NCBI GenBank assembly: GCA_020632555.1
Contig: JACKFI010000001.1
Span: 133,152-197,151, forward strand
DNA: 64,000 bases
Origin: Candidatus Omnitrophota bacterium
Lineage (GTDB): Bacteria > Omnitrophota > Gorgyraeia > Zapsychrales > JANLHA01
Reading direction: 5' to 3'
Both the position numbers and the translations under genes were made by a program. Numbering within the stretch: the first letter of the stretch is position 1; every line of letters begins with the position of its first letter. The notes below the pieces were generated by a model. That model did no database searches, was not told where the DNA came from, and was given only the letters and a program-made list of their open reading frames with translations. This document shows, in pieces, positions 45,975-63,402 of the stretch.

Positions 45975-47996
45975 TTAAGGACGATGTTGAAGTTTTTTCT
46001 CGAGGGTTTGCAATTGCAGTTCAATTTTTTCAAAGGTCTGATCTTGTAAGCGCATTTGATTGTTCTGCTCTTTGAGCGCGCCGGTTAGAACCGCGGTAAT
46101 GCCCATCGGATCAACACTTCTGCGACCTTCTTCAGCGACGAACTCCGGAACATCTTCGGCAATAAACCCGACGTGATGTTCCTCATGATTGACTTTATAA
46201 TTATAAGTCACAGGCTGCAATTCTTTGACCACTTCTAAAGCTTGGCGGGTATCTAATGGATAGATATGCTCTTTATACTCGCGGCTGGATAAAGTCATCC
46301 ACGTTCCAACATCGTCCAAATGCGCATTATTACCAAAATGCAAAGGGTAGGCCGGATCAGGTCGTCCAACACCAATTCGACCATTATTTTTAACCATAAA
46401 AATATCTCCAGCGGTTGCGGAGTTCTGTGAAGTCACAGCAAAAAAATCGTCCCCATTATTAATTTTTATATCTAAAATCGCACTGGGCGCAGTGTTACGA
46501 ATACCGAATTTGGGATTATTGGTACTGGGCGCAATAATAAACGCATCCGAGGCTGAAATCGAAACAGCTGATATGGAATACCCCCACACAAAAGATCGAT
46601 TTGCGCTATTAATCAAATTCATATAACGTCCTCCTGCCCATGAATAATCGCCCAAAACCGTATTATTTCGACCATTGCTAATGACTGAATAATTTCCTGA
46701 AACATCATTATTCACACCACCAACAACTATTGAAGAACGTCCAGCCCTATTATTAGCCCCTCCCCAAATAACCGCATAATCCCCAGATGTCACATTTCCT
46801 GTTCCACCCATAATCGCCGACCAAGAGCCATTAACTGTATTGCTCCTGCCTCCATCAATCACTGAATACAAACCATTCGCGGTATTGGTCAATCCTCCCG
46901 CAATAAATGAATAACTCGCCAACGCATTATTTGATTGCCCCCCGCCGACCACAGCATAAGGACCAGCTGAATTTTGACAACCGCCACTGACCACAGAATA
47001 AATACCGGGATCGTGATGCAATGTGCCGCCGGAAATAGTAAAATAATCGGCCGCAACAGTTTTGGTCGGATCCGTTAAACAATTTGGAAAAACCCATTGC
47101 GCATTATTACTACTGCCGCCGGTGATCGTCGCACCGACTCCTGCCGCAACATTACAAGAACCACTAAAAACAACATTATAATCATTTCGTGTTTGGCTTG
47201 ATTCTCCACCGACAACAGAAGCTCTCCCCTGCACATCACTTCGCTCACCCCAATTGACAGCATACTGACTGAAAACATCTGTTTTTAAACCGCCCAAATT
47301 AGCTGAATAATCTCCGGAAGCTTTTGAATACCGTCCAAATGCAACTGCAGCTAACCCACTGGCCTTAATATTGTCTTTACCTAAAGCAATTGAATAATCG
47401 CCAATATTGCCATCATTCCAAGCATCGGAAAAATCTTCTTCCCCCCAAAAATGCGTTAAATGTCCAACACGAAAAGCCGCTTTACGAGGATACCAAATCA
47501 TTTGCACCGCCCCTTCAAAACTAGACTCAGCAATAGCAGGCAAGTCAGGCAAAAGTTGGCCACTGCCCAATTGCCCCATCGCTAAAATACCGCCATCATT
47601 TTCTAAAGTCAGCTTGAATTCCGGAACAGTCGTGCCAATACCCACAAAAATATTGGGATTGGTGACTATCGCAGTTGGAAAAACATCATTGCCCGACTGG
47701 GTCCAAGAGCTTTCCAACAATGTCCATTGTCCATTTCCACTGCCATCATCAAAACAATAATGCAATTGATCTGTCCCCTGCTTAACAGACAATGTCCCAA
47801 GCGCACAAGGGGTGGATAATACTTGCGGCAATAAAGTCACTCGATCATAAGCGCCTTGCGGTGCCGGATAATATGTCGTTAATGTAAGACTCTCAGCCAA
47901 CGCAGACAAAGAACTCAATACAATCAAAGCGACGCTGATCGCCCCAATTTGAATTGAGCGTAAAAAACCATCGTCTCTGTGCTGAGCCTTTTGCAT
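45975..47996 (-). CDS. Secreted tail-fibre-like Gly-rich beta-helix repeat protein with C-terminal peptidase-S74 / intramolecular chaperone domain (paralog 1)
   Basis: 673 aa. Signal peptide ..LSALAESL. N-module TTYYPAPQGAYDRVTLLPQ..C..G..C. Many GGxxNxaxGxYSxixGG repeats. C-terminal LSSREYKEHIYPLD..LQPVTYNYK..HVGFIAEDVP then a coiled coil. Confidence 0.75.
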   Translation of the reverse strand: MQKAQHRDDGFLRSIQIGAISVALIVLSSLSALAESLTLTTYYPAPQGAYDRVTLLPQVLSTPCALGTLSVKQGTDQLHYCFDDGSGNGQWTLLESSWTQSGNDVFPTAIVTNPNIFVGIGTTVPEFKLTLENDGGILAMGQLGSGQLLPDLPAIAESSFEGAVQMIWYPRKAAFRVGHLTHFWGEEDFSDAWNDGNIGDYSIALGKDNIKASGLAAVAFGRYSKASGDYSANLGGLKTDVFSQYAVNWGERSDVQGRASVVGGESSQTRNDYNVVFSGSCNVAAGVGATITGGSSNNAQWVFPNCLTDPTKTVAADYFTISGGTLHHDPGIYSVVSGGCQNSAGPYAVVGGGQSNNALASYSFIAGGLTNTANGLYSVIDGGRSNTVNGSWSAIMGGTGNVTSGDYAVIWGGANNRAGRSSIVVGGVNNDVSGNYSVISNGRNNTVLGDYSWAGGRYMNLINSANRSFVWGYSISAVSISASDAFIIAPSTNNPKFGIRNTAPSAILDIKINNGDDFFAVTSQNSATAGDIFMVKNNGRIGVGRPDPAYPLHFGNNAHLDDVGTWMTLSSREYKEHIYPLDTRQALEVVKELQPVTYNYKVNHEEHHVGFIAEDVPEFVAEEGRRSVDPMGITAVLTGALKEQNNQMRLQDQTFEKIELQLQTLEKKLQHRP

Positions 47997-48011
47997 ATTT
48001 TTATCCCTGTC

Positions 48012-50006
48012 TTATTTCTCTAACCTTGTCCGCAATACTTTAATTCTTTCTTCAATCAGCTGAATCTTGTGTTCCCGTTGTTCAATTTCAGATTGTTGAT
48101 TTTGAACAACCTTGGTTAAAACGGCAACAATATCCATTGTGCTCAAAGTTTTGCGGTCTTTAACCGCAACTAAACTCGGAACATCTTCGGCAATAAATCC
48201 AATATTCGTATGATCAGGATCATTTTTATATTCAAATGTAACCGGATTTAATTGCTCAAAAGCTTGCTGGGCATCTGCTCCTGTCAGCGGAATAATATTT
48301 TCTTTAAGCTTGCGGCTAGATCCATTTTCCCAGGATCCTCCAGAACTCACATAAGCCCCATTGCCAAACTCCATTGCATAAGTAGGATTTGTTGGCATTA
48401 TTTTTTGGCTGCCAATATAACCATTTCTTTTCACAATAAAAACATCCCCAGAAGTTATTTTTCCCAAAGCCAAGAAATTATCAGCAGTTCCGTTGGCATT
48501 AACTTCTAAAACACCAACCGGATTAGTATCCCTGATCCCAACTCTGGGATTCCAAACAACTCCGCCAATCGTTCCCGGCGCAATAATAAATGCATCCGGC
48601 ACAACAATAGAAACCGCTGTATCAGAATATCCCCACGCAAAAGTTCGCTGCGCGGTACTTGTCAAATTCATAAAACGTCCCCCAGCCCAAGAATAATCGC
48701 CATCTACTATATTGTCCGTCCCACCCATGATCGTAGAATACCCGCCGTAAGCTCTGTTTCGCTCACCCCCCGCGATCACAGAATAATTATAGCTAGCATC
48801 ATTTTGCCACCCACCACCTATAATCTGGCCGAAACCTCCGCGAATCACATTCGTGCGTCCACTAGAAATAAACGAATACCTATTACCAGTTAAAATGGAA
48901 TTGCTGTCCCCACCGGAAATTCGCACATATTCACCAGCTGGACTAAACACAGAAACGTATTCACCGGTTTTATTCGCCAAGCCACCGCCAATGCTTGAAT
49001 AAGGTCCCTCAACAATATTGCCCTCACCCCCCAAAACAATAGAATAATCAGATCTGACTTTATTGTCCTTACCCCCACCAATCAGCGAATACCCCGTCGG
49101 AACACCAAAATCAGTAAAATCAATTAAATTATTAAAACCACCATTGATGTTTGAATATGGAATTGTGACACGATTTTGTGCCCCGCCGGCAACAACACTA
49201 TAAATCGCAGTGGCCTGATTATCTAAACCCCCAAGAATCGCAGAAAAATCTCCGGAAACCACATTGTTTTCTCCACCCCAAAGTGCCGCATATCGACCAC
49301 TGGCCATATTGTCCTTGCCACCGCCAACCGCTGAAAAATCCGCACTGGCCGTGTTCCTAAATCCACTGCCAACCACAGAATATAATGCACTGGCAATATT
49401 TCCATCGCCGCCGCCGATAGCTGAATAATGTCCACTGGCCCTTGTATTCTTTCCAAAAGCCGTGGAATAATTGCCGATATTCCCATTGTCCCATTGAGCC
49501 CCATCAACATAACCGGCGCGAATCGCGGCTTTACGCGGATACCAAATAAACCGGCTGCCCGCTCCTAAATTCGGCAAGGTCGCGCCACTGCCAAATGTCC
49601 CCTTAGCCATAATCCCGCCATCTTTTATTAAAGTCAGTTTTGAATCCGGCGTGTTGGTCCCAATCCCAACACGCAATAAAGGATTGCTCAAAGTATCTTT
49701 CAAATAAATATCATCATTCGTTTGCATCCAAACATCACTAAGCGCTTCCCACGCACCATTACCGCTGCCATCATTGTGACAATACTGAAGACTCCCCAAA
49801 GAATTCACATACAAAGATCCAATCGGACAAGCCGCAGTCAAGTCTGCGCGTGGCAGTAAACGAAAAGTGTCATATTCCCCTACCAATGAAGGATAATAAA
49901 TATCCATTTTCATTTCTGGGCTCGCCTGCGCAACGGGGACAAACACAAATCCCGTACAAATGAGGAGAAGAATTAGGAAAAGTTTTTTTGAATTATTTAT
50001 CATCAT
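48012..50006 (-). CDS. Secreted tail-fibre-like repeat protein with C-terminal S74 chaperone domain (paralog 2)
   Basis: 664 aa. Signal peptide ..PVAQASPE. DIYYPSLVGEYDTFRLLPR. Same repeat core. C-terminal GSSRKLKENIIPL..LNPVTFEYK..NIGFIAEDVP. Confidence 0.75.
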   Translation of the reverse strand: MMINNSKKLFLILLLICTGFVFVPVAQASPEMKMDIYYPSLVGEYDTFRLLPRADLTAACPIGSLYVNSLGSLQYCHNDGSGNGAWEALSDVWMQTNDDIYLKDTLSNPLLRVGIGTNTPDSKLTLIKDGGIMAKGTFGSGATLPNLGAGSRFIWYPRKAAIRAGYVDGAQWDNGNIGNYSTAFGKNTRASGHYSAIGGGDGNIASALYSVVGSGFRNTASADFSAVGGGKDNMASGRYAALWGGENNVVSGDFSAILGGLDNQATAIYSVVAGGAQNRVTIPYSNINGGFNNLIDFTDFGVPTGYSLIGGGKDNKVRSDYSIVLGGEGNIVEGPYSSIGGGLANKTGEYVSVFSPAGEYVRISGGDSNSILTGNRYSFISSGRTNVIRGGFGQIIGGGWQNDASYNYSVIAGGERNRAYGGYSTIMGGTDNIVDGDYSWAGGRFMNLTSTAQRTFAWGYSDTAVSIVVPDAFIIAPGTIGGVVWNPRVGIRDTNPVGVLEVNANGTADNFLALGKITSGDVFIVKRNGYIGSQKIMPTNPTYAMEFGNGAYVSSGGSWENGSSRKLKENIIPLTGADAQQAFEQLNPVTFEYKNDPDHTNIGFIAEDVPSLVAVKDRKTLSTMDIVAVLTKVVQNQQSEIEQREHKIQLIEERIKVLRTRLEK

Positions 50007-50008
50007 AT

Positions 50009-51943
50009 TTACTCAAAGTGCCTGTTTAATTGCTCTAGCTCATTTAATAAATCTTCACTTTTTTGCTTCTGTTGCTCAATTTTCTCTTGTTGATAAGCAA
50101 CAACCTTGGTTAAAACCGCAGCAATATCCATTGGGGCTAATCCTTGGCGTTGTTTTTGAACAACCAAAGCAGGAACATCTTCGGCAATAAAACCAACATA
50201 TTCTTCATCTTTTTGTAATTTATAATTAAACCGTACCGGATTTAAACCACGCAATGTTTCTAAAGCTTGATCCAGGTCCAAAGCCGTAATATTTTCTTTA
50301 TATTCACGACTTGATGAAGGCATGAATTTACCACTGGCATCAACATAGGCACCGTTACCAAAATCCATAATGTATTGCGGATTACTCTTATTAACCCCAA
50401 TGCAACCATTGCAACTGCCGCCTTTCTTGATGGTAAAAATATCACCCACAACAGAACTAGAGTTGCTGGTAAAGTTTAAATAATCATCCGCAGAATTATT
50501 GCCATTAATTTCCAACCCAGCGGCAGGAGTTATATCGCGAATACCCATTCTGCCAGAATAAATGATAAAAGCATTGGCTGTCGAAATATCTGCAGGCGCT
50601 GCAGAATATCCCCACAAAAAAGTATTATTAGCCCCAGTGGTCAATCTCATATTTCGACCAGCAACAAATGAATATGGGCCAACAATAGAATTATCAGCCC
50701 CACCGGCAATCATCGAACAATCAGAAGCCGCCTCAACCCTATTGAGCTTACCCCCCATAACCGTTGCATAAGGACTCAAAACGCCATTGTCTTCTCCTGC
50801 GCCAATCACAGAATAATCCTGACTCACAGTATTTCTATGCCCACCACCGACGACCGAATAAAGACCCTGAACAAGATTATCACTGCCGCCGGCAATAACC
50901 GAATACTGTCCAGAAATAACATTTGACTTCCCACCGGAATTAACAGAATATGAAGCGCTGGACGAATTTAAATGCCCCCCCGCAATAACAGTCCGATCCG
51001 TTACATTGACAAAGGTGTTGGCCCGACCGCCGCTAATGACCCCATAACTGCTAACCTGACTTGGCGAAAAAGAATTATCCCCACCACCTGAAATTATTTG
51101 ATAATCATAATAAGTCTTATTATTGTTCCCACCCGCAATAATTCTAAAACGAGAATAATTATCCGACCCGCGCGGGTGAGAATTATCTCTCCCTCCGCCG
51201 ATATCAGACCACACGTCCCCCGCACTATTATTAAAACCGGCTAGTCCTCCCTCCCAACAATCATCACGGCAAACATTGTTTTCTCCACCAAGAATAATTC
51301 CGCCCTTAGCTGCATTCGATTTACCTCCTAAAATCATTCCCCATCTGGCATCGTTATTCTCGCCACCTAAAACAAACATCCCTCTGCTGCCATATCCCAT
51401 AACTACACTGCCTGGATCAATATTCCCAACATCCCATTCATTCCCGGCAGCATACCCGGAACGAAAAGCTTTTTTCGATGGAATCCACATCAAGCGCGTA
51501 CCGGCTCCCGCAGTAACTAAGGCTGTCCCACTGGCCCAACTGGGCGTAAACCATCGCGATAAAATTCCACCATCACCGGCGAGCGTTAACTTAAACTGCG
51601 GCATCATTGTTCCAATCCCAACTTTTTTAGCTGCTGGATTCGTCGTATCGGCAAGATGGAGATTGTCTCCTGTCAATACCCACGTACCAGAGACAAGCAC
51701 GTATTTAGAAAACGGAGTGTCCTTAACACAATAATAAAGTCTGCCTAGGTCTGTCGCATTGGCATACAATGTACCAACAGGACAATTTGTATTTGGAGTA
51801 ATAGCTGGCTGAGGATTTAATCTGAGTTTGCTGTAATTTCCCGTTGGAGCAGGATAGTAGGACGTCATTTCCAAACCGCTGCAAGCTGCACAGGCGATAA
51901 ACGCGAACGAAAAAAACAAATATGCTGAAAATATTCTTCGCAT
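50009..51943 (-). CDS. Secreted tail-fibre-like repeat protein with C-terminal S74 chaperone domain (paralog 3)
   Basis: 644 aa. Signal/lipobox-like FIACAACSG. TSYYPAPTGNYSKLRLNPQ. Same repeat core. C-terminal PSSREYKENITALD..LNPVRFNYK..YVGFIAEDVP. 2-nt gap to paralog 2. Confidence 0.75.
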   Translation of the reverse strand: MRRIFSAYLFFSFAFIACAACSGLEMTSYYPAPTGNYSKLRLNPQPAITPNTNCPVGTLYANATDLGRLYYCVKDTPFSKYVLVSGTWVLTGDNLHLADTTNPAAKKVGIGTMMPQFKLTLAGDGGILSRWFTPSWASGTALVTAGAGTRLMWIPSKKAFRSGYAAGNEWDVGNIDPGSVVMGYGSRGMFVLGGENNDARWGMILGGKSNAAKGGIILGGENNVCRDDCWEGGLAGFNNSAGDVWSDIGGGRDNSHPRGSDNYSRFRIIAGGNNNKTYYDYQIISGGGDNSFSPSQVSSYGVISGGRANTFVNVTDRTVIAGGHLNSSSASYSVNSGGKSNVISGQYSVIAGGSDNLVQGLYSVVGGGHRNTVSQDYSVIGAGEDNGVLSPYATVMGGKLNRVEAASDCSMIAGGADNSIVGPYSFVAGRNMRLTTGANNTFLWGYSAAPADISTANAFIIYSGRMGIRDITPAAGLEINGNNSADDYLNFTSNSSSVVGDIFTIKKGGSCNGCIGVNKSNPQYIMDFGNGAYVDASGKFMPSSSREYKENITALDLDQALETLRGLNPVRFNYKLQKDEEYVGFIAEDVPALVVQKQRQGLAPMDIAAVLTKVVAYQQEKIEQQKQKSEDLLNELEQLNRHFE

Positions 51944-53320: not shown

Positions 53321-55126
53321 TTAAAGCTTCTCAATACGCCGGGCCATATCGGCCAAATGCATAGTCGCCAGACGATCCAATTCATCAGGACCGGACTTGA
53401 GCAACAAAACACGCTCATAAAACGCGATCGCTTTTTCCCGTTGCCCCAGCATTTGATACGTTGAAGCGAGGTTAAATAAAGCTTCTTTCAAATTTCCATC
53501 TAATGAAATTGCTTTTTCGTAATACTCAATGGCCCGCCGGGGATCAGATAATTTCGAATACAAAATCCCCAAACTATGGTAACCGCGCGCATTATCGGGT
53601 TTTTCTCTCATCAAACGTTCATAATGTGAAACCAAAAACAATTCCGTAGACTTGATATTATCGTCAAGCAAGTTCTTCAAATCGCCCGGATCGGTAATCT
53701 TATCATATTCGCGCAAACCTTCCCAAAACTTACCTTGATCACATAAGGATTTACCCAAACCAATGCGCGCCCGGATATTAAAAGGTTCAACATCCAAAAC
53801 TTTTCGAAAATTATGTTCAGCCAGATCAAACCGATTGCGCTTAGCATAAGATAAAGCCAAAGAATTGCGAATACGCGTATTGGTCGGATTAATGGACAAA
53901 GTGCGCTCGAACATTGCGATTTCATTGCTGGAATAAATGTTGTATTGAATCGTTAAAAGAATCAAAAATAAAGAAAACCCTATCACACCAGAGCGAATCA
54001 TGAAAGGAGAAATCAATTTACGGCGCGCACAGGCTTTTTTGTAATGCTCAAAGAGCACCATGGCTAAAACAAAAATACCAATGCTGGGCACATATAAAAA
54101 ATGCTCCGCTGTTGAAATATAGCCCGGCTGGACTCCCACTGTTGTAATAATCTGAGAAACAGGTAAAAGTTCAATAAAAAACCAGCTCACACAAAAAGCT
54201 TGCAACCCTGTGATTTTCTCGCGCTTAATCCAAGCCATCGCCATTAAGGCCAAGAAAAATAGCACAGTCAGAATCACCTGAGTGTCCATGAAACTAATAA
54301 AAATCGGCTGAGAACGATCAAAATAAAGATCAACCGGAAAAATGAAAAGGCGCAAATCGATGATCACACTTTTTAAAAATGTCAAAAAACCCAAAACCAT
54401 TTCACTCGCCGATCGCCACGGAAAAGTTCTCGTAATGCCTAAAATATGGCGTATCCCCAAATAAACTCCGGCGACAGCAGCGTAAGGAACAAGGCCAACG
54501 AAAAGTTTTTTAAAATGAAAGCTTTGTTTTTCCTTAATAAAATAAGAATAACTTAAAAACACCAATGGAAGAATACCCGCGGATTCTTTGCACAGCAGCG
54601 CCAAAGCAAACGCGATCAGTGAAAAATACGAATAATATTTCCGGCGGTCGGAATAAATAAAAAAATAAAATGACGCCAGCCCATAAAAAGCGCACAAAAG
54701 AATAGAACGCCCGGGAATATTAGACACCGCCTCCCATTGAATCGGATGCAAAGCAAACAAAAATGCCGCTCCCAAGGCCATGGCTCGTCGATCTGTCAAA
54801 GCAAAAACAATCGCAAAAACCCAGAAAGCGTTGAGAATATGAATAAGAATATTGTCTACATAATACGGAACGGGATCGAGTTTAAAAAAATGGTATTCCT
54901 TCATAAAACTCAGCGTAACCAATGGCCGATAATAAGCCTCCCCACTAAAAAAAGCGCTGGTCATCACTTTGGGAATATTACGAAAACTGCGAACATCTTC
55001 ATTGCGGACAATTGAATAATCATCATCCAGCGTCTTAAAAGCGCCATTAATGCTAAACGAATAGACAAAACATGTCATAAACGCCAACAAAATCAACCCA
55101 ACAAGTGTTTTACGTTTTTCAATCAT
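53321..55126 (-). CDS. GT-C-fold membrane glycosyltransferase with C-terminal TPR repeats (TMTC/PMT-like), paralog A
   Basis: 601 aa. First-loop acidic motif FKTLDDDYSIVRNEDV, YYRPLVTLSF, about 10 TM helices, then 4-5 TPR units (..YHSLGILYSKLSDPRRAIEYYEKAISLD..). Confidence 0.7.
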   Translation of the reverse strand: MIEKRKTLVGLILLAFMTCFVYSFSINGAFKTLDDDYSIVRNEDVRSFRNIPKVMTSAFFSGEAYYRPLVTLSFMKEYHFFKLDPVPYYVDNILIHILNAFWVFAIVFALTDRRAMALGAAFLFALHPIQWEAVSNIPGRSILLCAFYGLASFYFFIYSDRRKYYSYFSLIAFALALLCKESAGILPLVFLSYSYFIKEKQSFHFKKLFVGLVPYAAVAGVYLGIRHILGITRTFPWRSASEMVLGFLTFLKSVIIDLRLFIFPVDLYFDRSQPIFISFMDTQVILTVLFFLALMAMAWIKREKITGLQAFCVSWFFIELLPVSQIITTVGVQPGYISTAEHFLYVPSIGIFVLAMVLFEHYKKACARRKLISPFMIRSGVIGFSLFLILLTIQYNIYSSNEIAMFERTLSINPTNTRIRNSLALSYAKRNRFDLAEHNFRKVLDVEPFNIRARIGLGKSLCDQGKFWEGLREYDKITDPGDLKNLLDDNIKSTELFLVSHYERLMREKPDNARGYHSLGILYSKLSDPRRAIEYYEKAISLDGNLKEALFNLASTYQMLGQREKAIAFYERVLLLKSGPDELDRLATMHLADMARRIEKL

Positions 55127-56927
55127 TTTTTTTCTCTGCCTGGTTAAGGTAATTTTCTACCGCTTTTAAATTCATATCCCCATCAAACTTTTCTTGAGCT
55201 TTTGCCAATACCGTCCGCGCTTGCGGCAAATCACCGGCCTCAATGTTAATATGTATCACAAAAACATAAGCCAGTACCGATTGAGAATCAACTGCCATGG
55301 CCTGCAAAGCACAATCTTTTGCCGACACATAATCTTTTTTAATCAAATAATTCCTCGAAAGCTCCAAATACAATCCCGAAAAACCGGGAGCCAACTCAAT
55401 GGCTTTCTTCAAATAACCAATCGCGGCGTCGGGAGTAGCAGCCGCTTTACTTAGAAGATGATAAGTCATAAATTTTTCTTTGTCACTGGAAATAAACGGA
55501 TTATTCATCGCGACTTTAAGATGTTGTGTAAGATATTTAACCGCCTGCGGCGAATGACCTGCCAAATAACTATCCAAGCCTAAAATCCAATACGGGCGAG
55601 AACTATCCGGATACCGGCGAATCATTTCGCGGCAAGCCACAAAATTATTTCTAAAGAAATCATTATTGGCAATGGTTAAAATAATCAAAAACCCTGTCCA
55701 AACTCCTGGCAATATCAATCTCATGTTCAACGTAATATGTCGTCGAGTAAACCACTGCGCAAGATGGTCTATACCAATCGCAAATAACAAAAAAAATCCA
55801 ATCGACGGCAAATACAAGAAACGAAATGCTAAAGGATTAAGCAAAGGAAAGATCCCAGAAGCCGGGAAATAATTGACAAAAAACCACACAAACCCAAAAG
55901 TAATAATTTTATCGCGTCGAAAAAAATTAACGGCTAAAATTATGGACAATAAGCTAACAACCAACGGCACCATCAATTCCCAAATCGGCATTGGAAAAAT
56001 TGGCGGGGCATACAAGGGAGGAAGAACAGAAACTTTAAACGGCAAAACCAGCGCCACGCAGTACTGTAAGAAAAGTTTAAGCATCAAGACAATTTGCGCT
56101 AAACCTTTTAAAGCATAAGGCGAAGGCTGTAAATAAAATACATTAGGAATTAAAATGAAGTACACACATAAATAAAAGATCGTGATTCCAGCCAAAACCG
56201 CGTAAAGCCCCTTCTTTTGACCAAGAATCTGTCGACCCTTTTGCGCTGAAAGAAAGAACCAGTCGACAATAAAAATAATAAATGGAAAAGTTACTGCTGT
56301 TTCTTTTGAAAACAAAGCCAAAAAATATGACACTCCGACAAGACCAAACCAGAGGCCTTTTCTTTTAGCCTCACTAAAGCGCGCATAAGCTAAAACCGCG
56401 CACAAATAAAACATCGTCATCAAAATATCCGAACGATACCCGCTGGCATTGACAACTTCCGACTGAATTGGATGGACTGCGAAAAAACTTGCCGCCCAAA
56501 AAGCTATTTTTTTATTGCCGGAAATCCGCAGGATAAAATAAAAAACCAAAATGCAGGTCAAAAAATGAAGAAATATATTACTAAAATGATGCCCCGTCGG
56601 ATTGTTCTTCCATAAAGCGTAATCTATAAAAAAGGTCGCAGCGCTAACCGGACGATAAGAAACGCACCCGGAAAAAGATTGAGTCTTTTGTGAAGCATCA
56701 TAAGTCGACGGATTCATGACCAAATCTTGTGAGAAAATCTTTGGGAAATTGGTCAGACTTTTATAAAATTCATTGCCGCTAAAAAGAGCCTTGTCGTCGC
56801 CAACAAAGTCATTTTGCAAACAATTGTGAAAAGCGGCTGCAACAAAAAGCGCTAAAAGAAAAATAATTAATCGATTGGTGAAGGGAATTTTTGTGAAGGA
56901 AAAATTTTTCAAGGCACGAAGAATCAA
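55119..56927 (-). CDS. GT-C-fold membrane glycosyltransferase with C-terminal TPR repeats (TMTC/PMT-like), paralog B
   Basis: 602 aa. NDFVGDDKALFSGNEF, SYRPVSAATFF, multi-TM core, C-terminal TPR units. 8-nt overlap with paralog A. Confidence 0.7.
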   Translation of the reverse strand: MILRALKNFSFTKIPFTNRLIIFLLALFVAAAFHNCLQNDFVGDDKALFSGNEFYKSLTNFPKIFSQDLVMNPSTYDASQKTQSFSGCVSYRPVSAATFFIDYALWKNNPTGHHFSNIFLHFLTCILVFYFILRISGNKKIAFWAASFFAVHPIQSEVVNASGYRSDILMTMFYLCAVLAYARFSEAKRKGLWFGLVGVSYFLALFSKETAVTFPFIIFIVDWFFLSAQKGRQILGQKKGLYAVLAGITIFYLCVYFILIPNVFYLQPSPYALKGLAQIVLMLKLFLQYCVALVLPFKVSVLPPLYAPPIFPMPIWELMVPLVVSLLSIILAVNFFRRDKIITFGFVWFFVNYFPASGIFPLLNPLAFRFLYLPSIGFFLLFAIGIDHLAQWFTRRHITLNMRLILPGVWTGFLIILTIANNDFFRNNFVACREMIRRYPDSSRPYWILGLDSYLAGHSPQAVKYLTQHLKVAMNNPFISSDKEKFMTYHLLSKAAATPDAAIGYLKKAIELAPGFSGLYLELSRNYLIKKDYVSAKDCALQAMAVDSQSVLAYVFVIHINIEAGDLPQARTVLAKAQEKFDGDMNLKAVENYLNQAEKKND

Positions 56928-56951: not shown

Positions 56952-57024
56952 AGCTGGCGGTCAGGGTTGAACTGACGGCCTGCGCATTACGAATGCGCTG
57001 CTCTACCGACTGAGCTACGCCAGC
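56952..57024 (-). tRNA. tRNA-Thr (CGT)
   Basis: rc = GCTGGCGTAGCTCAGTCGGTAGAGCAGCGCATTCGTAATGCGCAGGCCGTCAGTTCAACCCTGACCGCCAGCT. All four stems pair. Anticodon loop TTCGTAA. Confidence 0.9.
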
Positions 57025-57503: not shown

Positions 57504-57650
57504 GGGAAACCGGGACATCACCCACCGAACAACATTGCACCAAACTAAAAAAAAAGAATGGTGCCGAGACTAAGGGATTGTTGTGGGAAACCGGGATTTC
57601 ACCCACCGAACAACAAAGCACCAAACTAAAAAAAAGAATGGTGCCGAGAC
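57504..57650. repeat. 81-bp tandem duplication carrying the 3' end of tRNA-Phe
   Basis: GGGAAACCGGGAYWTCACCCACCGAACAACAWWGCACCAAACTAAAAAAAA(A)GAATGGTGCCGAGAC occurs at 57504-57570 and 57585-57650. The second copy runs into the intact tRNA; the first ends in a 12-nt tRNA 3' fragment. Confidence 0.85.
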
Positions 57651-57714
57651 CCGGAATTGAACCGGGGACGCACGGCTTTTCAGGCCGTCGCTCTACCGAC
57701 TGAGCTATCTCGGC
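57639..57714 (-). tRNA. tRNA-Phe (GAA), CCA encoded
   Basis: rc = GCCGAGATAGCTCAGTCGGTAGAGCGACGGCCTGAAAAGCCGTGCGTCCCCGGTTCAATTCCGGGTCTCGGCACCA. All stems pair. Anticodon loop CTGAAAA. Confidence 0.9.
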
Positions 57715-57973: not shown

Positions 57974-58375
57974 CTACGGATGCGACCGTTGAACAATCTT
58001 GGTATAAATATCCTGAGCTAATTTAATTCTTGGCATCATGCCCCGACGAGCTTTGACTCGTAGTTTTACAGTATCTGCGACCGGTTCAGCCACTGTCACC
58101 GTAATATGAGCCCCAGAAACCTTAGCAACAACCACTCCGGCAATTTCATTCTTCTCTTCAATCAGCCCCATAATGGATACTGTATCAACCGCGGCCTGCC
58201 AAATATCCTGCATGGTATATCCACTGACCATGCCCTCAACCGTGTCTGGACTAATCGCATAACCGCCCAAAGCCCCGACGCCGCCAATTACCAAATAAAA
58301 ACAGCCACTGCCGGTCAATAAAAATAAAACCAACGCTATCGAAAAAAAACTTTTCTTAACAGAAAACCTTTCCAC
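57974..58375 (-). CDS. Hypothetical lipoprotein
   Basis: 133 aa. Lipobox LLTGSGC followed by a Gly-rich segment GGVGALGGYA. Confidence 0.5.
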   Translation of the reverse strand: MERFSVKKSFFSIALVLFLLTGSGCFYLVIGGVGALGGYAISPDTVEGMVSGYTMQDIWQAAVDTVSIMGLIEEKNEIAGVVVAKVSGAHITVTVAEPVADTVKLRVKARRGMMPRIKLAQDIYTKIVQRSHP

Positions 58376-59216: not shown

Positions 59217-59376
59217 AGTCGAATATTATAATTTAGAAATATTTTAGAAACTCATCTTATCATCGATTAACTAAATTGCTTGCCTTAGTGCTACAATTTT
59301 ATTTCGATGCTAAGACAAAAAAATCCCGCATGCCGATTTTCCAACATGCGGGATTGTGACGCAATGACTAATGAAC

Positions 59377-62300
59377 TTACAACTTGGGCGAAAGAACAAT
59401 AACGCCAGATTTTACAGTACTGGTATCCTGATCTTGCGGATAAGCCGCAACAACCGTATCTCCACTTAAAGCAATACTCTGCCCAAAATTGAGAATACCG
59501 GCTCCTGCTAAATTATACGCCCAGGCAAAAGAATTATTGGCCTGACGTTTAAAAACAATCACTGAATCCGTTGTATGTATCGAACCTAACGAGAAGGTTT
59601 TAGGATGCATCGCAACGGCGACAGTATTGTCTTTGGCCGTAAGGCTGATAATCGCACTGCTCGAATGCCACGGCAAGCTTAAGCGAGAATACGATGTATT
59701 CCACGTGCTAACCGGCGCTCCATACGGAGCATTGCGCATTTCATTAAAAATAAAAACATTACTCAAAAGAGTAATATCAGGAACAGCACTCAACGCAACA
59801 ATAAGCTGATGACCAACAACCTTGGTTGCCGTCAAAACAGCCTCAGCATTCTGCGGCGTTAATAACCCTATCTCTTGACCAAAATTAGCTATATCGTTTT
59901 CATACGTTTTTTCTAATGTCCAGAGACCTTGTCCTTTGTAACGATAGATAAAGATTTTACTCTTTTCGGTTTCCGAAGCTTTGGGCGCGCCAACTGCAAT
60001 AATCCCATCACCGACAGCTACCGATTGAGCAAATTGAACTTTACCAGCTTCCACTCCAGACAACTTCAATGTGGCCGCATAAGCCCATGCACCATTGTTA
60101 CGACTGATCACATACACAACTTTAGCCGACGGTAAAGAAACCGCCAAGCTGTCTGACGAAAGAGCCAGTTTCATATTACTAACTAAAGCTGGATCTAAAT
60201 TATCAATTTTACTAAGATCCAATTTATTGCCAGCTTGAACCCAAGCATTATTAACTTTGGAGAAAAAATAAAGACTGCTCTGCGCTTGCACAACCAACGC
60301 ATCTTTATTAGCCGCCAAAGTCTTGCCAAACTGATCACCATCTGCCAAACCTACAGGCGCGATAATCGCGGGCACAGGCACAGACTGTGTTGCATCAACA
60401 GGCATGCTCTTATATTGATAAACAACACCTTTGCCATTAACACTAGGGGCTCCGACGAATAATTCATTGCTCTCTTGCAAAACAGCAACGCTTTGCGCAA
60501 AACCAATGTTAAACTGCGGCGTTGCCAAACGGCCTGCTGACAGATTATCCAAATTGCTATAATACTCACCAACCGTGATTTTATCAGCTGGCTTTTTTAT
60601 AGCAGCAATAAATGAATCCATCACAAATTTTGCTTTCGCAGGATCTTTTAATGCCCAAATATTTTGAAAATACTTATTCATTGCATACTTTGTGTTCCAA
60701 AGCATTTTACTATCATAATAGTTACCAACGTTTGTTTTATCTGCCGGATTAAGAACTACGGCTATAATGGATTCCATCACAAACTTCTCTTTGGCAGGAT
60801 CCTTCGCCTGCGCCAAAATCGAAACATAACTATTGATTGCCGCTTGAGCTTTAAGCACAGCCGTTTGATCATAATACTGCCCAATTGTGGTTTTATCCGC
60901 AGGATTTAAAACTGTGGCCAACAATGATGTCATCACAAACTTCGCCTTAGCTGGATCTTCGTTCCCAGCCGATAAAACTGTGAAATAATTGTCAATCGCG
61001 ACTTTCGCTTTTGTCACCGCCACTTGATCCAAATACTGACCAATTGCGGTTTTGTCGGCAGGATTTAAAACTGTGGCCAACAATGATGTCATCACAAACT
61101 TCGCCTTAGCTGGATCTTCGTTCCCAGCCGATAAAACTGTGAAATAATTGTCAATCGCGGCTTTCGCTTTTGTCACCGCCACTTGATCCAAATACTGACC
61201 AATTGCGGTTTTGTCGGCAGGATTTAAAACTGTGGCCAACAATGATGTCATCACAAACTTCGCCTTAGCTGGATCTTCGTTCCCAGCCGATAAAACTGTG
61301 AAATAATTGTCAATCGCGGCTTTCGCTTTTGTCACCGCCACTTGATCCAAATACTGACCAATTGCGGTTTTGTCGGCAGGATTTAAAACTGTGGCCAACA
61401 ATGATGTCATCACAAACTTCGCCTTAGCTGGATCTTCGTTCCCAGCCGATAAAACTGTGAAATAATTGTCAATCGCGGCTTTCGCCTTTGTCACCGCCAC
61501 TTGATCCAAATACTGACCAATCGCGGTTTTGTCGGCGGGATTTAAAACCGTCGCAATCACTCTATCCATAACCAATTTTGCATTAACTGGATTTTGTACC
61601 GCAGCCAATAAAACCTGAAAATAATTATCAATTGTAATTTTAGAATTTGTTACCGCAGATTGATTGTAATAATCTCCAACAATCGCTTTTTCTGCAGGAT
61701 TCAAAACTGCAGCAATAGCCGAATCCATCGCCAGTTTTGCTTGCGCTGGATTTTTGGTAACAATCAACAATGTCGCAAAATAATCATCAATCGCAGCTTT
61801 AGCTTTATTAACAGCCATCTGAGACATTCCAATGCTGTAATAATTTGCAACAATGGTTTTGTCAGCAGCATTAAGAACCGTCGCCATTACAGCCTCCATA
61901 ACAGCTTTTGCCGTTGCTGGATTTTGCCCAGCGGCCAAAGCAGAAAAATAATTATCAATCGCAACTTTGGCCTTCACAATAGCTGTTTGGCCGTAATAAT
62001 TATTAACAATAAGTCTATCCGATGGATTAAGAACCGCCGCCATAGCGGCTTCCATGACAGTTTTCGCTATTGCTGGATTTTGCGCAGCCATCAAAGCAGA
62101 AAAATAATTATCAACCGCAGCTTTGGCCTTCACAATAGCCGTTTGGCCGTAATAATTATTAACAATAAGTTTATCTGATGGATTAAGAACCGCCGCCATA
62201 GCGGCTTCCATGACAGTTTTCGCTATTGCTGGATTTTGCGCAGCCATTAAAGCAGCAAAATACTTATCAATCGCCGCTTTGGCCTTCACAATAGCCGTTT

Positions 62301-63051
62301 GGCCGTAATAATTATTAACAATAAGTCTATCTGATGGATTAAGAACCGCCGCCATAGCGGCTTCCATGACAGTTTTCGCTATTGCTGGATTTTGCGCAGC
62401 CATCAAAGCAGCAAAATAATTATCAACCGCCGCTTTGGCCTTCACAATAGCTGTTTGGCCGTAATAATTACTAACAATAAGTTTATCTGATGAATTAAGA
62501 ACCGCCGCTATAGCGGCTTCCATGACAGTTTTCGCTATTGCTGGATTTTGCGCAGCCATCAAAGCAGCAAAATACTTATCAATCGCAGCTTTGGCCTTCA
62601 CAATAGCTGTTTGGCCGTAATAATTACTAACAATAAGTTTATCTGATGGATTAAGAACCGCCGCCATAGCGGCTTCCATGACAGTTTTCGCTATTGCTGG
62701 ATTTTGCGCAGCCATCAAAGCAGCAAAATAATTATCAACCGCCGCTTTGGCCTGAATAATAGCTGTTTGACCATAATAATTATTCACGATAGATCTATCT
62801 GCCGTGTTAACTACGGCAGCCATGGCCTGATCCATTGCAACCTTAGCTGCTGATGGATTCTGTCCACTCAACAAGACGCTAAAGTAATTGTCAATAGCCA
62901 CTTTAGCAGCTTCGACAGAAGTCAACTGCACTGCTGTCCCCACACTTGAACTTTGAGCATACACCATACTGGGCAATGCCAGCATGCCAAAACCAGCGCA
63001 CGCTCCCAACAATACAACAACAACCTTCTTAACCAAACTCTTTCGATTCAT
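59377..63051 (-). CDS. Large secreted repeat protein: about 15 tandem 52-54-aa helical repeats plus a C-terminal FG-GAP-like beta-propeller region
   Basis: 1224 aa. Signal peptide ..PSMVYAQ. Repeats of the form AKAAIDNYFxxLxAxxxPAxAKxVMxxxxAxVLNPxDKxxxxxYYxQxAxxK. C-terminal ~390 aa has FAQSVAV..VGAP, FGKTLA, FAQSVAVGDGIIAVGAP, FGQEIGL, FGQSIALSGDTVVAAYP. Confidence 0.8.
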   Translation of the reverse strand: MNRKSLVKKVVVVLLGACAGFGMLALPSMVYAQSSSVGTAVQLTSVEAAKVAIDNYFSVLLSGQNPSAAKVAMDQAMAAVVNTADRSIVNNYYGQTAIIQAKAAVDNYFAALMAAQNPAIAKTVMEAAMAAVLNPSDKLIVSNYYGQTAIVKAKAAIDKYFAALMAAQNPAIAKTVMEAAIAAVLNSSDKLIVSNYYGQTAIVKAKAAVDNYFAALMAAQNPAIAKTVMEAAMAAVLNPSDRLIVNNYYGQTAIVKAKAAIDKYFAALMAAQNPAIAKTVMEAAMAAVLNPSDKLIVNNYYGQTAIVKAKAAVDNYFSALMAAQNPAIAKTVMEAAMAAVLNPSDRLIVNNYYGQTAIVKAKVAIDNYFSALAAGQNPATAKAVMEAVMATVLNAADKTIVANYYSIGMSQMAVNKAKAAIDDYFATLLIVTKNPAQAKLAMDSAIAAVLNPAEKAIVGDYYNQSAVTNSKITIDNYFQVLLAAVQNPVNAKLVMDRVIATVLNPADKTAIGQYLDQVAVTKAKAAIDNYFTVLSAGNEDPAKAKFVMTSLLATVLNPADKTAIGQYLDQVAVTKAKAAIDNYFTVLSAGNEDPAKAKFVMTSLLATVLNPADKTAIGQYLDQVAVTKAKAAIDNYFTVLSAGNEDPAKAKFVMTSLLATVLNPADKTAIGQYLDQVAVTKAKVAIDNYFTVLSAGNEDPAKAKFVMTSLLATVLNPADKTTIGQYYDQTAVLKAQAAINSYVSILAQAKDPAKEKFVMESIIAVVLNPADKTNVGNYYDSKMLWNTKYAMNKYFQNIWALKDPAKAKFVMDSFIAAIKKPADKITVGEYYSNLDNLSAGRLATPQFNIGFAQSVAVLQESNELFVGAPSVNGKGVVYQYKSMPVDATQSVPVPAIIAPVGLADGDQFGKTLAANKDALVVQAQSSLYFFSKVNNAWVQAGNKLDLSKIDNLDPALVSNMKLALSSDSLAVSLPSAKVVYVISRNNGAWAYAATLKLSGVEAGKVQFAQSVAVGDGIIAVGAPKASETEKSKIFIYRYKGQGLWTLEKTYENDIANFGQEIGLLTPQNAEAVLTATKVVGHQLIVALSAVPDITLLSNVFIFNEMRNAPYGAPVSTWNTSYSRLSLPWHSSSAIISLTAKDNTVAVAMHPKTFSLGSIHTTDSVIVFKRQANNSFAWAYNLAGAGILNFGQSIALSGDTVVAAYPQDQDTSTVKSGVIVLSPKL
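60902..61537. repeat. 4 x 159-bp nearly identical in-frame tandem repeats inside the 1224-aa gene
   Basis: GGATTTAAAACTGTGGCCAACAATGATGTCATCAC.. recurs at 60902, 61061, 61220 and 61379. Only about 1-6 nt differ between copies by eye. Confidence 0.9.
61972..62751. repeat. 5 x 156-bp highly similar in-frame tandem repeats inside the 1224-aa gene
   Basis: CATAGCGGCTTCCATGACAGTTTTCGCTATTGCTGGATTTTGCGCAGCCAT recurs with a 156-bp period (for example 62041 and 62197). Encodes repeat copies 2-6. Confidence 0.9.
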
Positions 63052-63402
63052 ATAAACTCTCCTGTAAAATTAGTTTTCATTGAATATTTAAAAAAACTTA
63101 AGCATCAAAGGTTAATGCTTGGTCGCCAAACCACGCCAGATCCATCGATTGTTATATAGGGAAGGGTGCAACAGGTGATTTAGCTTGAAGGCTCCATTTA
63201 AGGAAGCTTGAATCTTAACCAATGATCCTAAAGTCTTACTAGAAGCACAGGACTCTGAAAAAGAGCATTGAAATCATTACGTCAAATGTAACATGCCAAT
63301 TGAAAATTGGCAAATTAATTTGACTAACCCAAAAATCTGATATTAAGTGATTAATTAACACAAAAAACAACCCTAGAAAAGGGCTGAGAAATGGGTGCTT
63401 TG

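Follow-up and report, generated by a model that had tools for sequence, protein, structure and literature searches.

A 64,000-nucleotide (nt) stretch of Candidatus Omnitrophota DNA (contig JACKFI010000001.1 of assembly GCA_020632555.1, positions 133,152 to 197,151; hereafter the window) carries on its minus strand, at 59377..63051, a gene whose 1224-amino-acid (aa) product has a well-supported architecture: an exported, predicted alpha-helical rod, apparently variable in length, made of a new family of repeats and ending in an FG-GAP_2 propeller. We refer to the repeat as DNYF, after a cluster of residues that it contains. The protein is best read as an extracellular or cell-surface binding protein in which the rod carries the propeller as its head, a reading to which we assign a probability of roughly one-half. 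The original prediction, which was made from the sequence alone, had placed the open reading frame (ORF) exactly and had described most of its parts, which are as follows.

62956..63051, minus strand: plausible Sec signal peptide, aa 1-32 (MNRKSLVKK, then VVVVLLGACAGFGMLALPSMV, then YA/QS, with the slash at the cleavage site), read from the sequence.
62917..62955, minus strand: short mature N-terminal segment, aa 33-45 (QSSSVGTAVQLTS), before the first repeat.
60535..62916, minus strand: array of 15 DNYF repeat units of 52-56 aa each, aa 46-839.
61981..62760, minus strand: block A, units 2-6 (aa 98-357), period 156 bp, from DNA identity and Tandem Repeats Finder (TRF).
60859..61494, minus strand: block B, units 10-13 (aa 520-731), period 159 bp, from DNA identity and TRF.
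59380..60534, minus strand: predicted seven-bladed FG-GAP_2 (integrin-alpha-like) beta-propeller, aa 840-1224, from Pfam, AlphaFold, and Foldseek; approximate blades at aa 854-897, 912-945, 961-996, 1010-1052, 1057-1130, 1133-1182, and 1192-1222, the fifth (1057-1130) with a low-confidence insert.

The ORF starts with ATG, and its product is identical to MCB9756969.1 (H6753_00935), annotated by NCBI as a hypothetical protein from a Candidatus Omnitrophota metagenome-assembled genome (MAG), to which ten more of the proteins encoded in the window also map. An allele on metagenome contigs (up to 1.1 Mb) from the Joint Genome Institute (JGI) is 99% identical and likewise 1224 aa long, and the length therefore agrees across two independent assemblies, the NCBI MAG and the JGI contigs.

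The repeat array spans 794 aa, and all 15 of its tandem units are detected by a unit profile at 81-93 bits each, which bears out the initial count of about 15 repeats. Six unit positions are invariant (Y11, P21, K25, M28, A33, and Y47), and the Y-F and Y-Y pairs are kept in at least 90% of 40 diverse units drawn from the whole family. By DNA identity, the units separate into block A (94 to 97% pairwise; TRF period 156, 6.0 copies, 93% matches), block B (93 to 100%; TRF period 159, 4.3 copies, 98% matches), and the diverged units 1, 7, 8, 9, 14, and 15 (54 to 77%), in line with the earlier suggestion of at least three subfamilies. The high identity within the two blocks, as opposed to the 54 to 77% of the other units, suggests that blocks A and B were amplified recently upon an older, diverged array. 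Because units 11 and 12 are identical (100% over 159 bp), the assembled count of 15 could be off. Beyond the array, no further copy of the repeat occurs within the window.

The DNYF repeat matches no family in Pfam, NCBIfam, or the PDB, as the original prediction had anticipated. Among 40 diverse single units scanned against Pfam (expectation value [E] ≤ 1), no family recurs and the best isolated match has an E of >0.004, and comparison of the unit profile with PDB sequences yielded only two chance matches (E > 0.3). Four Pfam families nevertheless pass their gathering scores on the whole protein because weak matches sum over 15 Ala-rich repeats. HCBP_related (PF06594) scores 32.8 against a cutoff of 21.4, yet only positions 6-21 of its 42-position profile match, and its best E on single units is 0.037. 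THP2, RNaseH_C, and TPR_14 lie slightly above their cutoffs, with no single stretch that passes, and were rejected as artefacts of repeated, Ala-rich sequence. The RTX proteins P0047-49 and P0053 match unit positions 29-51 only, at 7 to 8 bits per stretch, through a motif of some 20 residues (D-[KR]-[IL]-T-V-x-x-Y-F-x-Q-D-A) that the repeat shares with RTX toxins; kinship with these or with HCBP_related was therefore dismissed as a short-motif effect summed over repeats. The Leptospira family LIC_10421 (NCBIfam NF047526), for which no functional literature was found, was likewise set aside, scoring 40.9 bits against a cutoff of 90 and matching only 2 of 40 units (E = 0.007). Public precomputed annotations bear the same misleading labels (HCBP_related, THP2, RNaseH_C, and TPR_14).

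The repeat is very rare in other genomes. An exhaustive HMMER search with the unit profile (1.84 billion representative proteins, E ≤ 0.001) matched 14 proteins, about 8 of which are true members of the family (P0002, P0042 to P0046, P0050, and P0052); the 6 false matches comprise the four RTX toxins, which have the short motif only, and two unrelated repeat proteins. An indexed homolog search with the whole protein returned only the target itself, the repeats swamping the word index, and a scan of genome contigs with a pair alignment (A8) matched only the contig of the known ortholog. Two scans of metagenome contigs gave no match, and thus no extra alleles, and a scan of viral contigs found no relatives of the repeat and hence no sign of phage origin. 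Where the source of the repeat is named, it is Omnitrophota in two cases and, in another, a MAG with the label "uncultured Planctomycetales."

Members of the family combine the repeat with different partners. The ortholog in GCA_964474085.1 (L003) has a signal peptide and the same propeller and, between them, at least 4.5 units, then an assembly gap of Ns, then another 4.5 units; the L003 gene (8331-11298) is split by the Ns inside its array, and the deposited protein P0002 (625 aa) is an N-terminally truncated fragment. P0044 (Omnitrophica MAG, MBF0571786.1) has five units followed by a helical linker and a propeller whose alignment with that of the target is colinear and end to end (25% identity, E = 3e-12); P0044 scores 37.3 bits for FG-GAP_2. 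In P0052, a single unit is joined to a propeller of the P0044 type (53% identity to P0044) and to a further C-terminal domain, and P0046 has six units, a propeller, and a Cys-rich tail. The repeat and the same propeller occur together in P0002, P0044, P0046, P0052, and P0059. The roughly 13 units of P0042 are followed by a small Cys-containing C-terminal domain, and in P0043 (JGI, 1984 aa), a secreted protein with six CARDB domains, five units (aa 1278-1537) lie between two FN3 domains, with a HEYGH zincin-like motif, seen by eye, in the N-terminal region. Because it is fused to a propeller, to a Cys-containing domain (P0042), or to FN3 and CARDB domains (P0043), the repeat appears from these sequences to be a portable module of exported proteins for which the propeller is a preferred but not an obligatory partner.

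Two annotations at these loci call for caution. The JGI label of P0043 ("subtilase family serine protease/ribosomal protein S20") is not supported by the Pfam scan, and a 190-aa gene call on the opposite strand of L003 (8631-9203) probably reflects a spurious ORF that arises antisense inside the repeats.

The repeat is predicted to form a rod. AlphaFold was supplied with in-register four-unit windows from family members (alignment A7), and its model of units 7-10 is all-helical (predicted local distance difference test [pLDDT] 92; predicted template-modelling score [pTM] 0.80), with helices at 2-16, 22-33, 38-71, 79-90, 95-126, 131-142, 148-179, 184-196, and 201-214. Together with an Ala content of 21% across the array, this agrees with the Ala-rich, helical repeats first described. 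Each modelled unit consists of helix A, a Q-N-P turn, the 12-residue helix B, an L-N-P-x-D turn, and helix C, and helix C of one unit runs unbroken into helix A of the next, producing helices of 32 to 34 residues at every boundary. The units are therefore predicted to fold as small three-helix bundles linked by continuous helices, an arrangement that, for units 7-10, matches the structural part of the earlier proposal of an extended stalk. On one such long helix, the conserved N-Y-Y and D-N-Y-F clusters, about 16 residues apart, would face different bundles. A Foldseek search of the PDB with the four-unit rod gave no significant match (best E = 0.27). We estimate the length of the rod at about 3 nm per unit, or about 45 nm for 15 units, from the modelled helix lengths and the scale set by SAXS (the scattering of X-rays at small angles) of Embp.

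The 385-aa C-terminal domain belongs to the FG-GAP_2 family (Pfam PF14312), which it matches in three stretches at 27.9 bits against a cutoff of 23. Its blades are degenerate, with Pfam recognising 3 of the 7, and the classical integrin FG-GAP family (PF01839) is not among the Pfam matches of the target. The AlphaFold model, for which 41 sequences were aligned, has propeller topology, with seven groups of three to four strands (pTM 0.72; pLDDT > 90 for blades 1-4), and the first 29 ranks of its Foldseek search against the PDB are all integrin alpha propellers, with E values down to 3e-10. These results uphold the predicted resemblance to integrin alpha. The proposal that the C terminus contains at least five FG-GAP-like units ending in GAP or AYP stood in part: exactly five F[AG][QK][STE][VIL] motifs are present (FAQSV twice, FGKTL, FGQEI, and FGQSI), along with three GAP and one AYP, but the GAP at aa 1111 falls in the low-confidence insert of blade 5 and ends no blade. 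In an indexed search, the homologs of the propeller were one ortholog, P0002 (66% identity), and secreted FG-GAP_2 proteins of Nitrospira, Haliangium, and others (E from 1e-17 to 1e-4).

FG-GAP propellers are best known as ligand-binding heads, as in the integrins, and this speaks for the propeller as the distal, binding end of the protein. The opposite polarity, in which the propeller would anchor to the lipopolysaccharide, capsule, or S-layer glycan of the producing cell and the rods would point outward to form a brush or a fibrillar coat with a spacing, shielding, or coating role, accounts for some features of the family. There is no N-terminal anchor, and the first repeat begins about 13 residues past the cleavage site in every member; the C-terminal module varies between architectures, as cell-wall-binding modules often do; and the rod of P0042 ends in its small Cys-containing domain with no large head. 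The repeats of P0043, however, are internal spacers between FN3 and CARDB domains with no free distal end, and Pfam recognises no envelope-binding motif in the propeller. Together with the usual role of FG-GAP propellers, these observations render the reversed arrangement unlikely.

The N terminus of the target has the features of a Sec signal peptide, as had been proposed: a basic n-region, a hydrophobic core, and V-Y-A/Q at aa 30-33. A cleavage site of the A-x-A/Q type is common to all full-length relatives (P0042, P0044, P0046, P0050, and the L003 ortholog), and the target has no separate N-terminal domain between this site and the first repeat. A lipoprotein reading of the LLGAC sequence (Cys18) was rejected, since the ortholog has LLGAY at this position and the canonical A-x-A/Q site comes after it.

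In diderms, a protein with no more than a Sec signal gets only as far as the periplasm. The host, as one of the Omnitrophota, is a diderm, with LpxL-type acyltransferase and Lnt genes in the window and its surroundings, and a structural protein, for instance a spacer or scaffold, that stays in the periplasm would account for a signal peptide of the Sec type only, for the lack of a dedicated exporter in cis, and for a neighbourhood that includes envelope biogenesis genes (those for the LpxL-type acyltransferase, Lnt, and PMT-like glycosyltransferases). A rigid rod of the estimated 45 nm would nevertheless exceed the typical width of the periplasm, as judged from the model and from published dimensions (PMC7587433). 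Moreover, the domains that accompany the repeat elsewhere (FN3, CARDB, and FG-GAP) are typical of extracellular proteins, and strain-variable length is a hallmark of exposed ones (PMC9704523). We consider confinement to the periplasm very improbable.

Apparent variation in length is seen in a sister cluster of the target. The proteins P0057, P0046, and P0059, which form one cluster at 90% identity, have 5, 6, and 9 units, with length differences of exactly 52 and 156 aa. The flanks, comprising the N-terminal 90 aa and the C-terminal 495 aa, are 100% identical. Identical flanks around differing numbers of repeats constitute the pattern that defines Periscope Proteins (PMC9704523, PMC8201768), so these unit differences are Periscope-like. 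Since the DNA repeats are nearly identical, units could be gained or lost by recombination or slippage.

The gene itself is flanked by the following putative signals.

7 nt 5' of the target ATG, minus strand: ribosome-binding site AGGAG.
63285..63313, minus strand: promoter-like site, TTGCCA, a 17-nt spacer, and TACATT, with TG, from a consensus scan only.
63368-63386: terminator-like hairpin of the upstream gene, preceding the promoter-like site, from a consensus scan.
59322..59355, minus strand: intrinsic terminator-like hairpin with a 15-bp stem (7 GC pairs), then a T-run.

The downstream hairpin begins 22 nt past the stop codon and was graded strong. The promoter-like site and the flanking terminators, together with the ribosome-binding site, suggest that the gene is a stand-alone transcription unit. 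Within the array, periodic promoter-like and terminator-like matches spaced 156 or 159 bp apart, and two antisense ORFs of 81 and 172 aa on the plus strand (60664-62178), are by-products of the repeat and represent neither signals nor genes. At the five loci examined, family genes sit among housekeeping genes with no neighbours in common, and a conserved operon with a type II secretion system (T2SS), pilus, or other partner was rejected on these grounds.

A gene of this kind could also encode a freely released, untethered protein, acting as a bridging or agglutinating factor or as a carbohydrate-binding or -active protein whose rod separates or solubilises the propeller. Release would suit the apparent autonomy of the gene, with its own promoter-like site and terminator, and the failure to find an anchor of any kind, and one relative, P0043, is a large secreted protein of many domains that is apparently enzymatic (HEYGH, CARDB, FN3). 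Loci of the T2SS-like type are reportedly common among Omnitrophota (bioRxiv 10.1101/2023.11.21.568195), and the L003 ortholog has a prepilin peptidase gene 1.2 kb upstream, but this neighbourhood is not kept at the other loci. No catalytic family was detected in the propeller by Pfam or NCBIfam, and a long, rigid, strain-variable rod best fits a device that sets distance from a surface (Periscope concept, PMC9704523). Free release is accordingly a doubtful alternative.

The data establish the gene, its repeats, the family to which the propeller belongs, how rare and how modular the repeat is, and that alleles of a relative, alike in all else, differ in unit number as assembled; the folds of rod and propeller are predicted. 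We infer that the protein passes beyond the outer membrane, is tethered, and binds a ligand, as well as its biological role. On the preferred reading, that of a binding protein with rod and head, it would be exported via Sec as a single chain and its signal peptide cleaved, upon which the 15 units would fold into three-helix bundles that share helices and form a continuous, stiff rod of about 45 nm. The FG-GAP-type propeller would be the likely ligand-binding module at the end of the rod, and its binding would amount to adhesion to another cell, a polymer, or a surface, with the rod as a length-setting spacer. Gain and loss of repeats would cause the length of the rod to vary between strains. 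The original prediction had gone further and proposed an adhesin whose stalk presents a ligand-binding head. The structural half of that proposal agrees with the models; its functional half stays conjectural because no anchor, secretion partner, or conserved neighbourhood was found.

Several observations weigh against this reading. The Sec signal alone does not place the protein outside the cell, and no LPXTG, PEP-CTERM, conserved lipobox, or beta-barrel was found at either end of any member by motif check or Pfam. Nor do the five loci share a secretion system or partner gene next to the family gene. The geometry of the rod derives from the helix pattern rather than from measured coordinates, and blades 5 and 6 of the propeller, including the long insert of blade 5, are modelled at low confidence. 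Integrin-type Ca2+ loops are lacking (D-x-[DN]-x-[DN]-G is absent from the whole protein), and no ligand can be named. As for length, the window and JGI alleles both have 15 units (with 8 residue differences), and differing unit numbers were seen in relatives only; furthermore, differences in unit number between metagenome assemblies can be artefacts of repeat collapse, and the L003 array contains a gap of Ns.

Omnitrophota are uncultivated, mostly ultra-small bacteria thought to be attached to or to prey on other cells, and the proteins that mediate such contacts are largely unannotated (PMC10066038; bioRxiv 10.1101/2023.11.21.568195). They have been proposed to depend on cell attachment via large secreted proteins (PMC10066038; bioRxiv 10.1101/2023.11.21.568195), and the published work proposing attachment by secreted proteins or by T2SS-like or pilus systems does not describe the DNYF family. 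The target is thus a candidate surface or secreted marker for cell-cell contact in Omnitrophota. A bolder and rather speculative interpretation, which we hold to be improbable, is that the repeat is a lineage-specific helical "molecular ruler" with which these ultra-small, host-dependent bacteria would set, and through gain or loss of units tune, the distance of a propeller or other effector to a host or prey cell, while an unrecognised route of attachment or export would keep it on the diderm surface. If so, it would be the first helical Periscope-type system outside cultured pathogens and would provide a handle on how Omnitrophota nanobacteria dock to their partners. What is new here is a compact family of repeats of about 52 aa in about 8 clusters, with a confident predicted fold, a recurrent propeller partner, and signs of length polymorphism. 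The family could enter Pfam, in which the present gap gives rise to misleading matches such as HCBP_related, and its small helical units make a tractable recombinant target for studies of rod mechanics.

The window and related contigs hold other genes of potential interest. Two genes downstream of the target, at 57974-58375 on the minus strand, a 133-aa ORF has a lipoprotein-type N terminus (LLTGSG/C) and no Pfam family. Three tandem paralogous ORFs of 673, 664, and 644 aa (45975-51943, minus strand; MCB9756961-63, annotated by NCBI as "tail fiber domain-containing protein") each end in a Peptidase_S74 intramolecular-chaperone domain (Pfam E from 5e-11 to 1.6e-9) and may be cell-encoded trimeric fibres in the Omnitrophota chromosome. 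Two adjacent paralogs of about 600 aa (53321-56927, minus strand) have multiple transmembrane segments, TPR repeats, and a weak match to the PMT_2 glycosyltransferase family, and are followed by two tRNA genes (56952-57024 and 57642-57714). The region of this pair is intact in L002 and is called as seven short ORFs in the JGI strain L001, which suggests frameshifts, pseudogenisation, or assembly errors in the latter. Directly downstream of the ortholog in L003 (11365-17363) lies a pair of secreted paralogs, each about 1000 aa long and without a Pfam domain, that have in common an N-terminal region and the conserved C-terminal motif GGI[ND]F[DN]P..LNLQIKRD..GVPLPLPQQN...INIEGL.PVI.NI.PV.

Secreted proteins with a stalk and a head, and rods of three-helix bundles, are already known in kind, and the target overturns no concept. 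Among the known rods, the FIVAR-GA arrays of Ebh (Staphylococcus aureus) and Embp (S. epidermidis) come close in that they are exported and extracellular and consist of a single chain of tandem three-helix bundles, in many near-identical repeats, with a long shared helix and a rigid, rod-like form. Embp has a helix common to two bundles, and its length over six FG-repeats (12 bundles) is 34.8 nm by SAXS (PMC7587433); each bundle adds about 2.9 nm to the rod of Ebh and Embp (PMC7587433, citing Tanaka et al. 2008). No sequence kinship was detected: single DNYF units match none of FIVAR, GA, and DUF1542, and the unit profile matches no Ebh or Embp chain in the PDB. Whereas the target unit is a single bundle of 52 aa, that of Ebh and Embp is a 125-aa pair of unlike bundles; their repeats themselves bind the ligand (fibronectin), and they have a C-terminal membrane or wall anchor, of which none was found in the target, a protein of a diderm candidate phylum. 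Spectrin likewise forms an elongated rod of tandem three-helix bundles in which helix C is continuous with the next helix A, but its repeats, of about 106 aa, are eukaryotic and cytoskeletal, whereas DNYF units are half that size, secreted, and bacterial. No spectrin Pfam match occurs in the target or in single units.

The propeller shares its seven blades and the F-G/A...G-A-P signature with bacterial FG-GAP_2 proteins (PF14312) and with the integrin alpha head. Its blades are degenerate and lack integrin-type Ca2+ loops, and blade 5 has a long insert; among its FG-GAP_2 relatives in Nitrospira, Haliangium, and others, the N-terminal domains are cadherin-like beta-sandwiches or other beta domains and never the DNYF repeat.

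The architecture as a whole also resembles that of Periscope Proteins (SasG, Rib, and the SHIRT repeats of Sgo_0707, among others), which have a rod-like array and a terminal globular domain, and among which three-helix-bundle repeats are an accepted fold class (PMC9704523). The target has the highly similar DNA repeats of such proteins (94 to 97% identity in units 2-6 and 93 to 100% in units 10-13), and its anisotropic, rod-like array is a matter of prediction (bridging helices, pLDDT 92, pTM 0.80). Cell-surface attachment, which also marks these proteins, has no visible counterpart, as neither a recognised anchor motif nor an anchor or beta-barrel family in Pfam or NCBIfam was detected. Unit number appears to differ among otherwise identical alleles in the sister cluster P0057/P0046/P0059, evidence that comes from metagenome assemblies and from relatives, the window and JGI alleles of the target gene both having 15 units. 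Periscope Proteins have so far come from cultured Gram-positive and proteobacterial pathogens, whereas the target belongs to the Omnitrophota.

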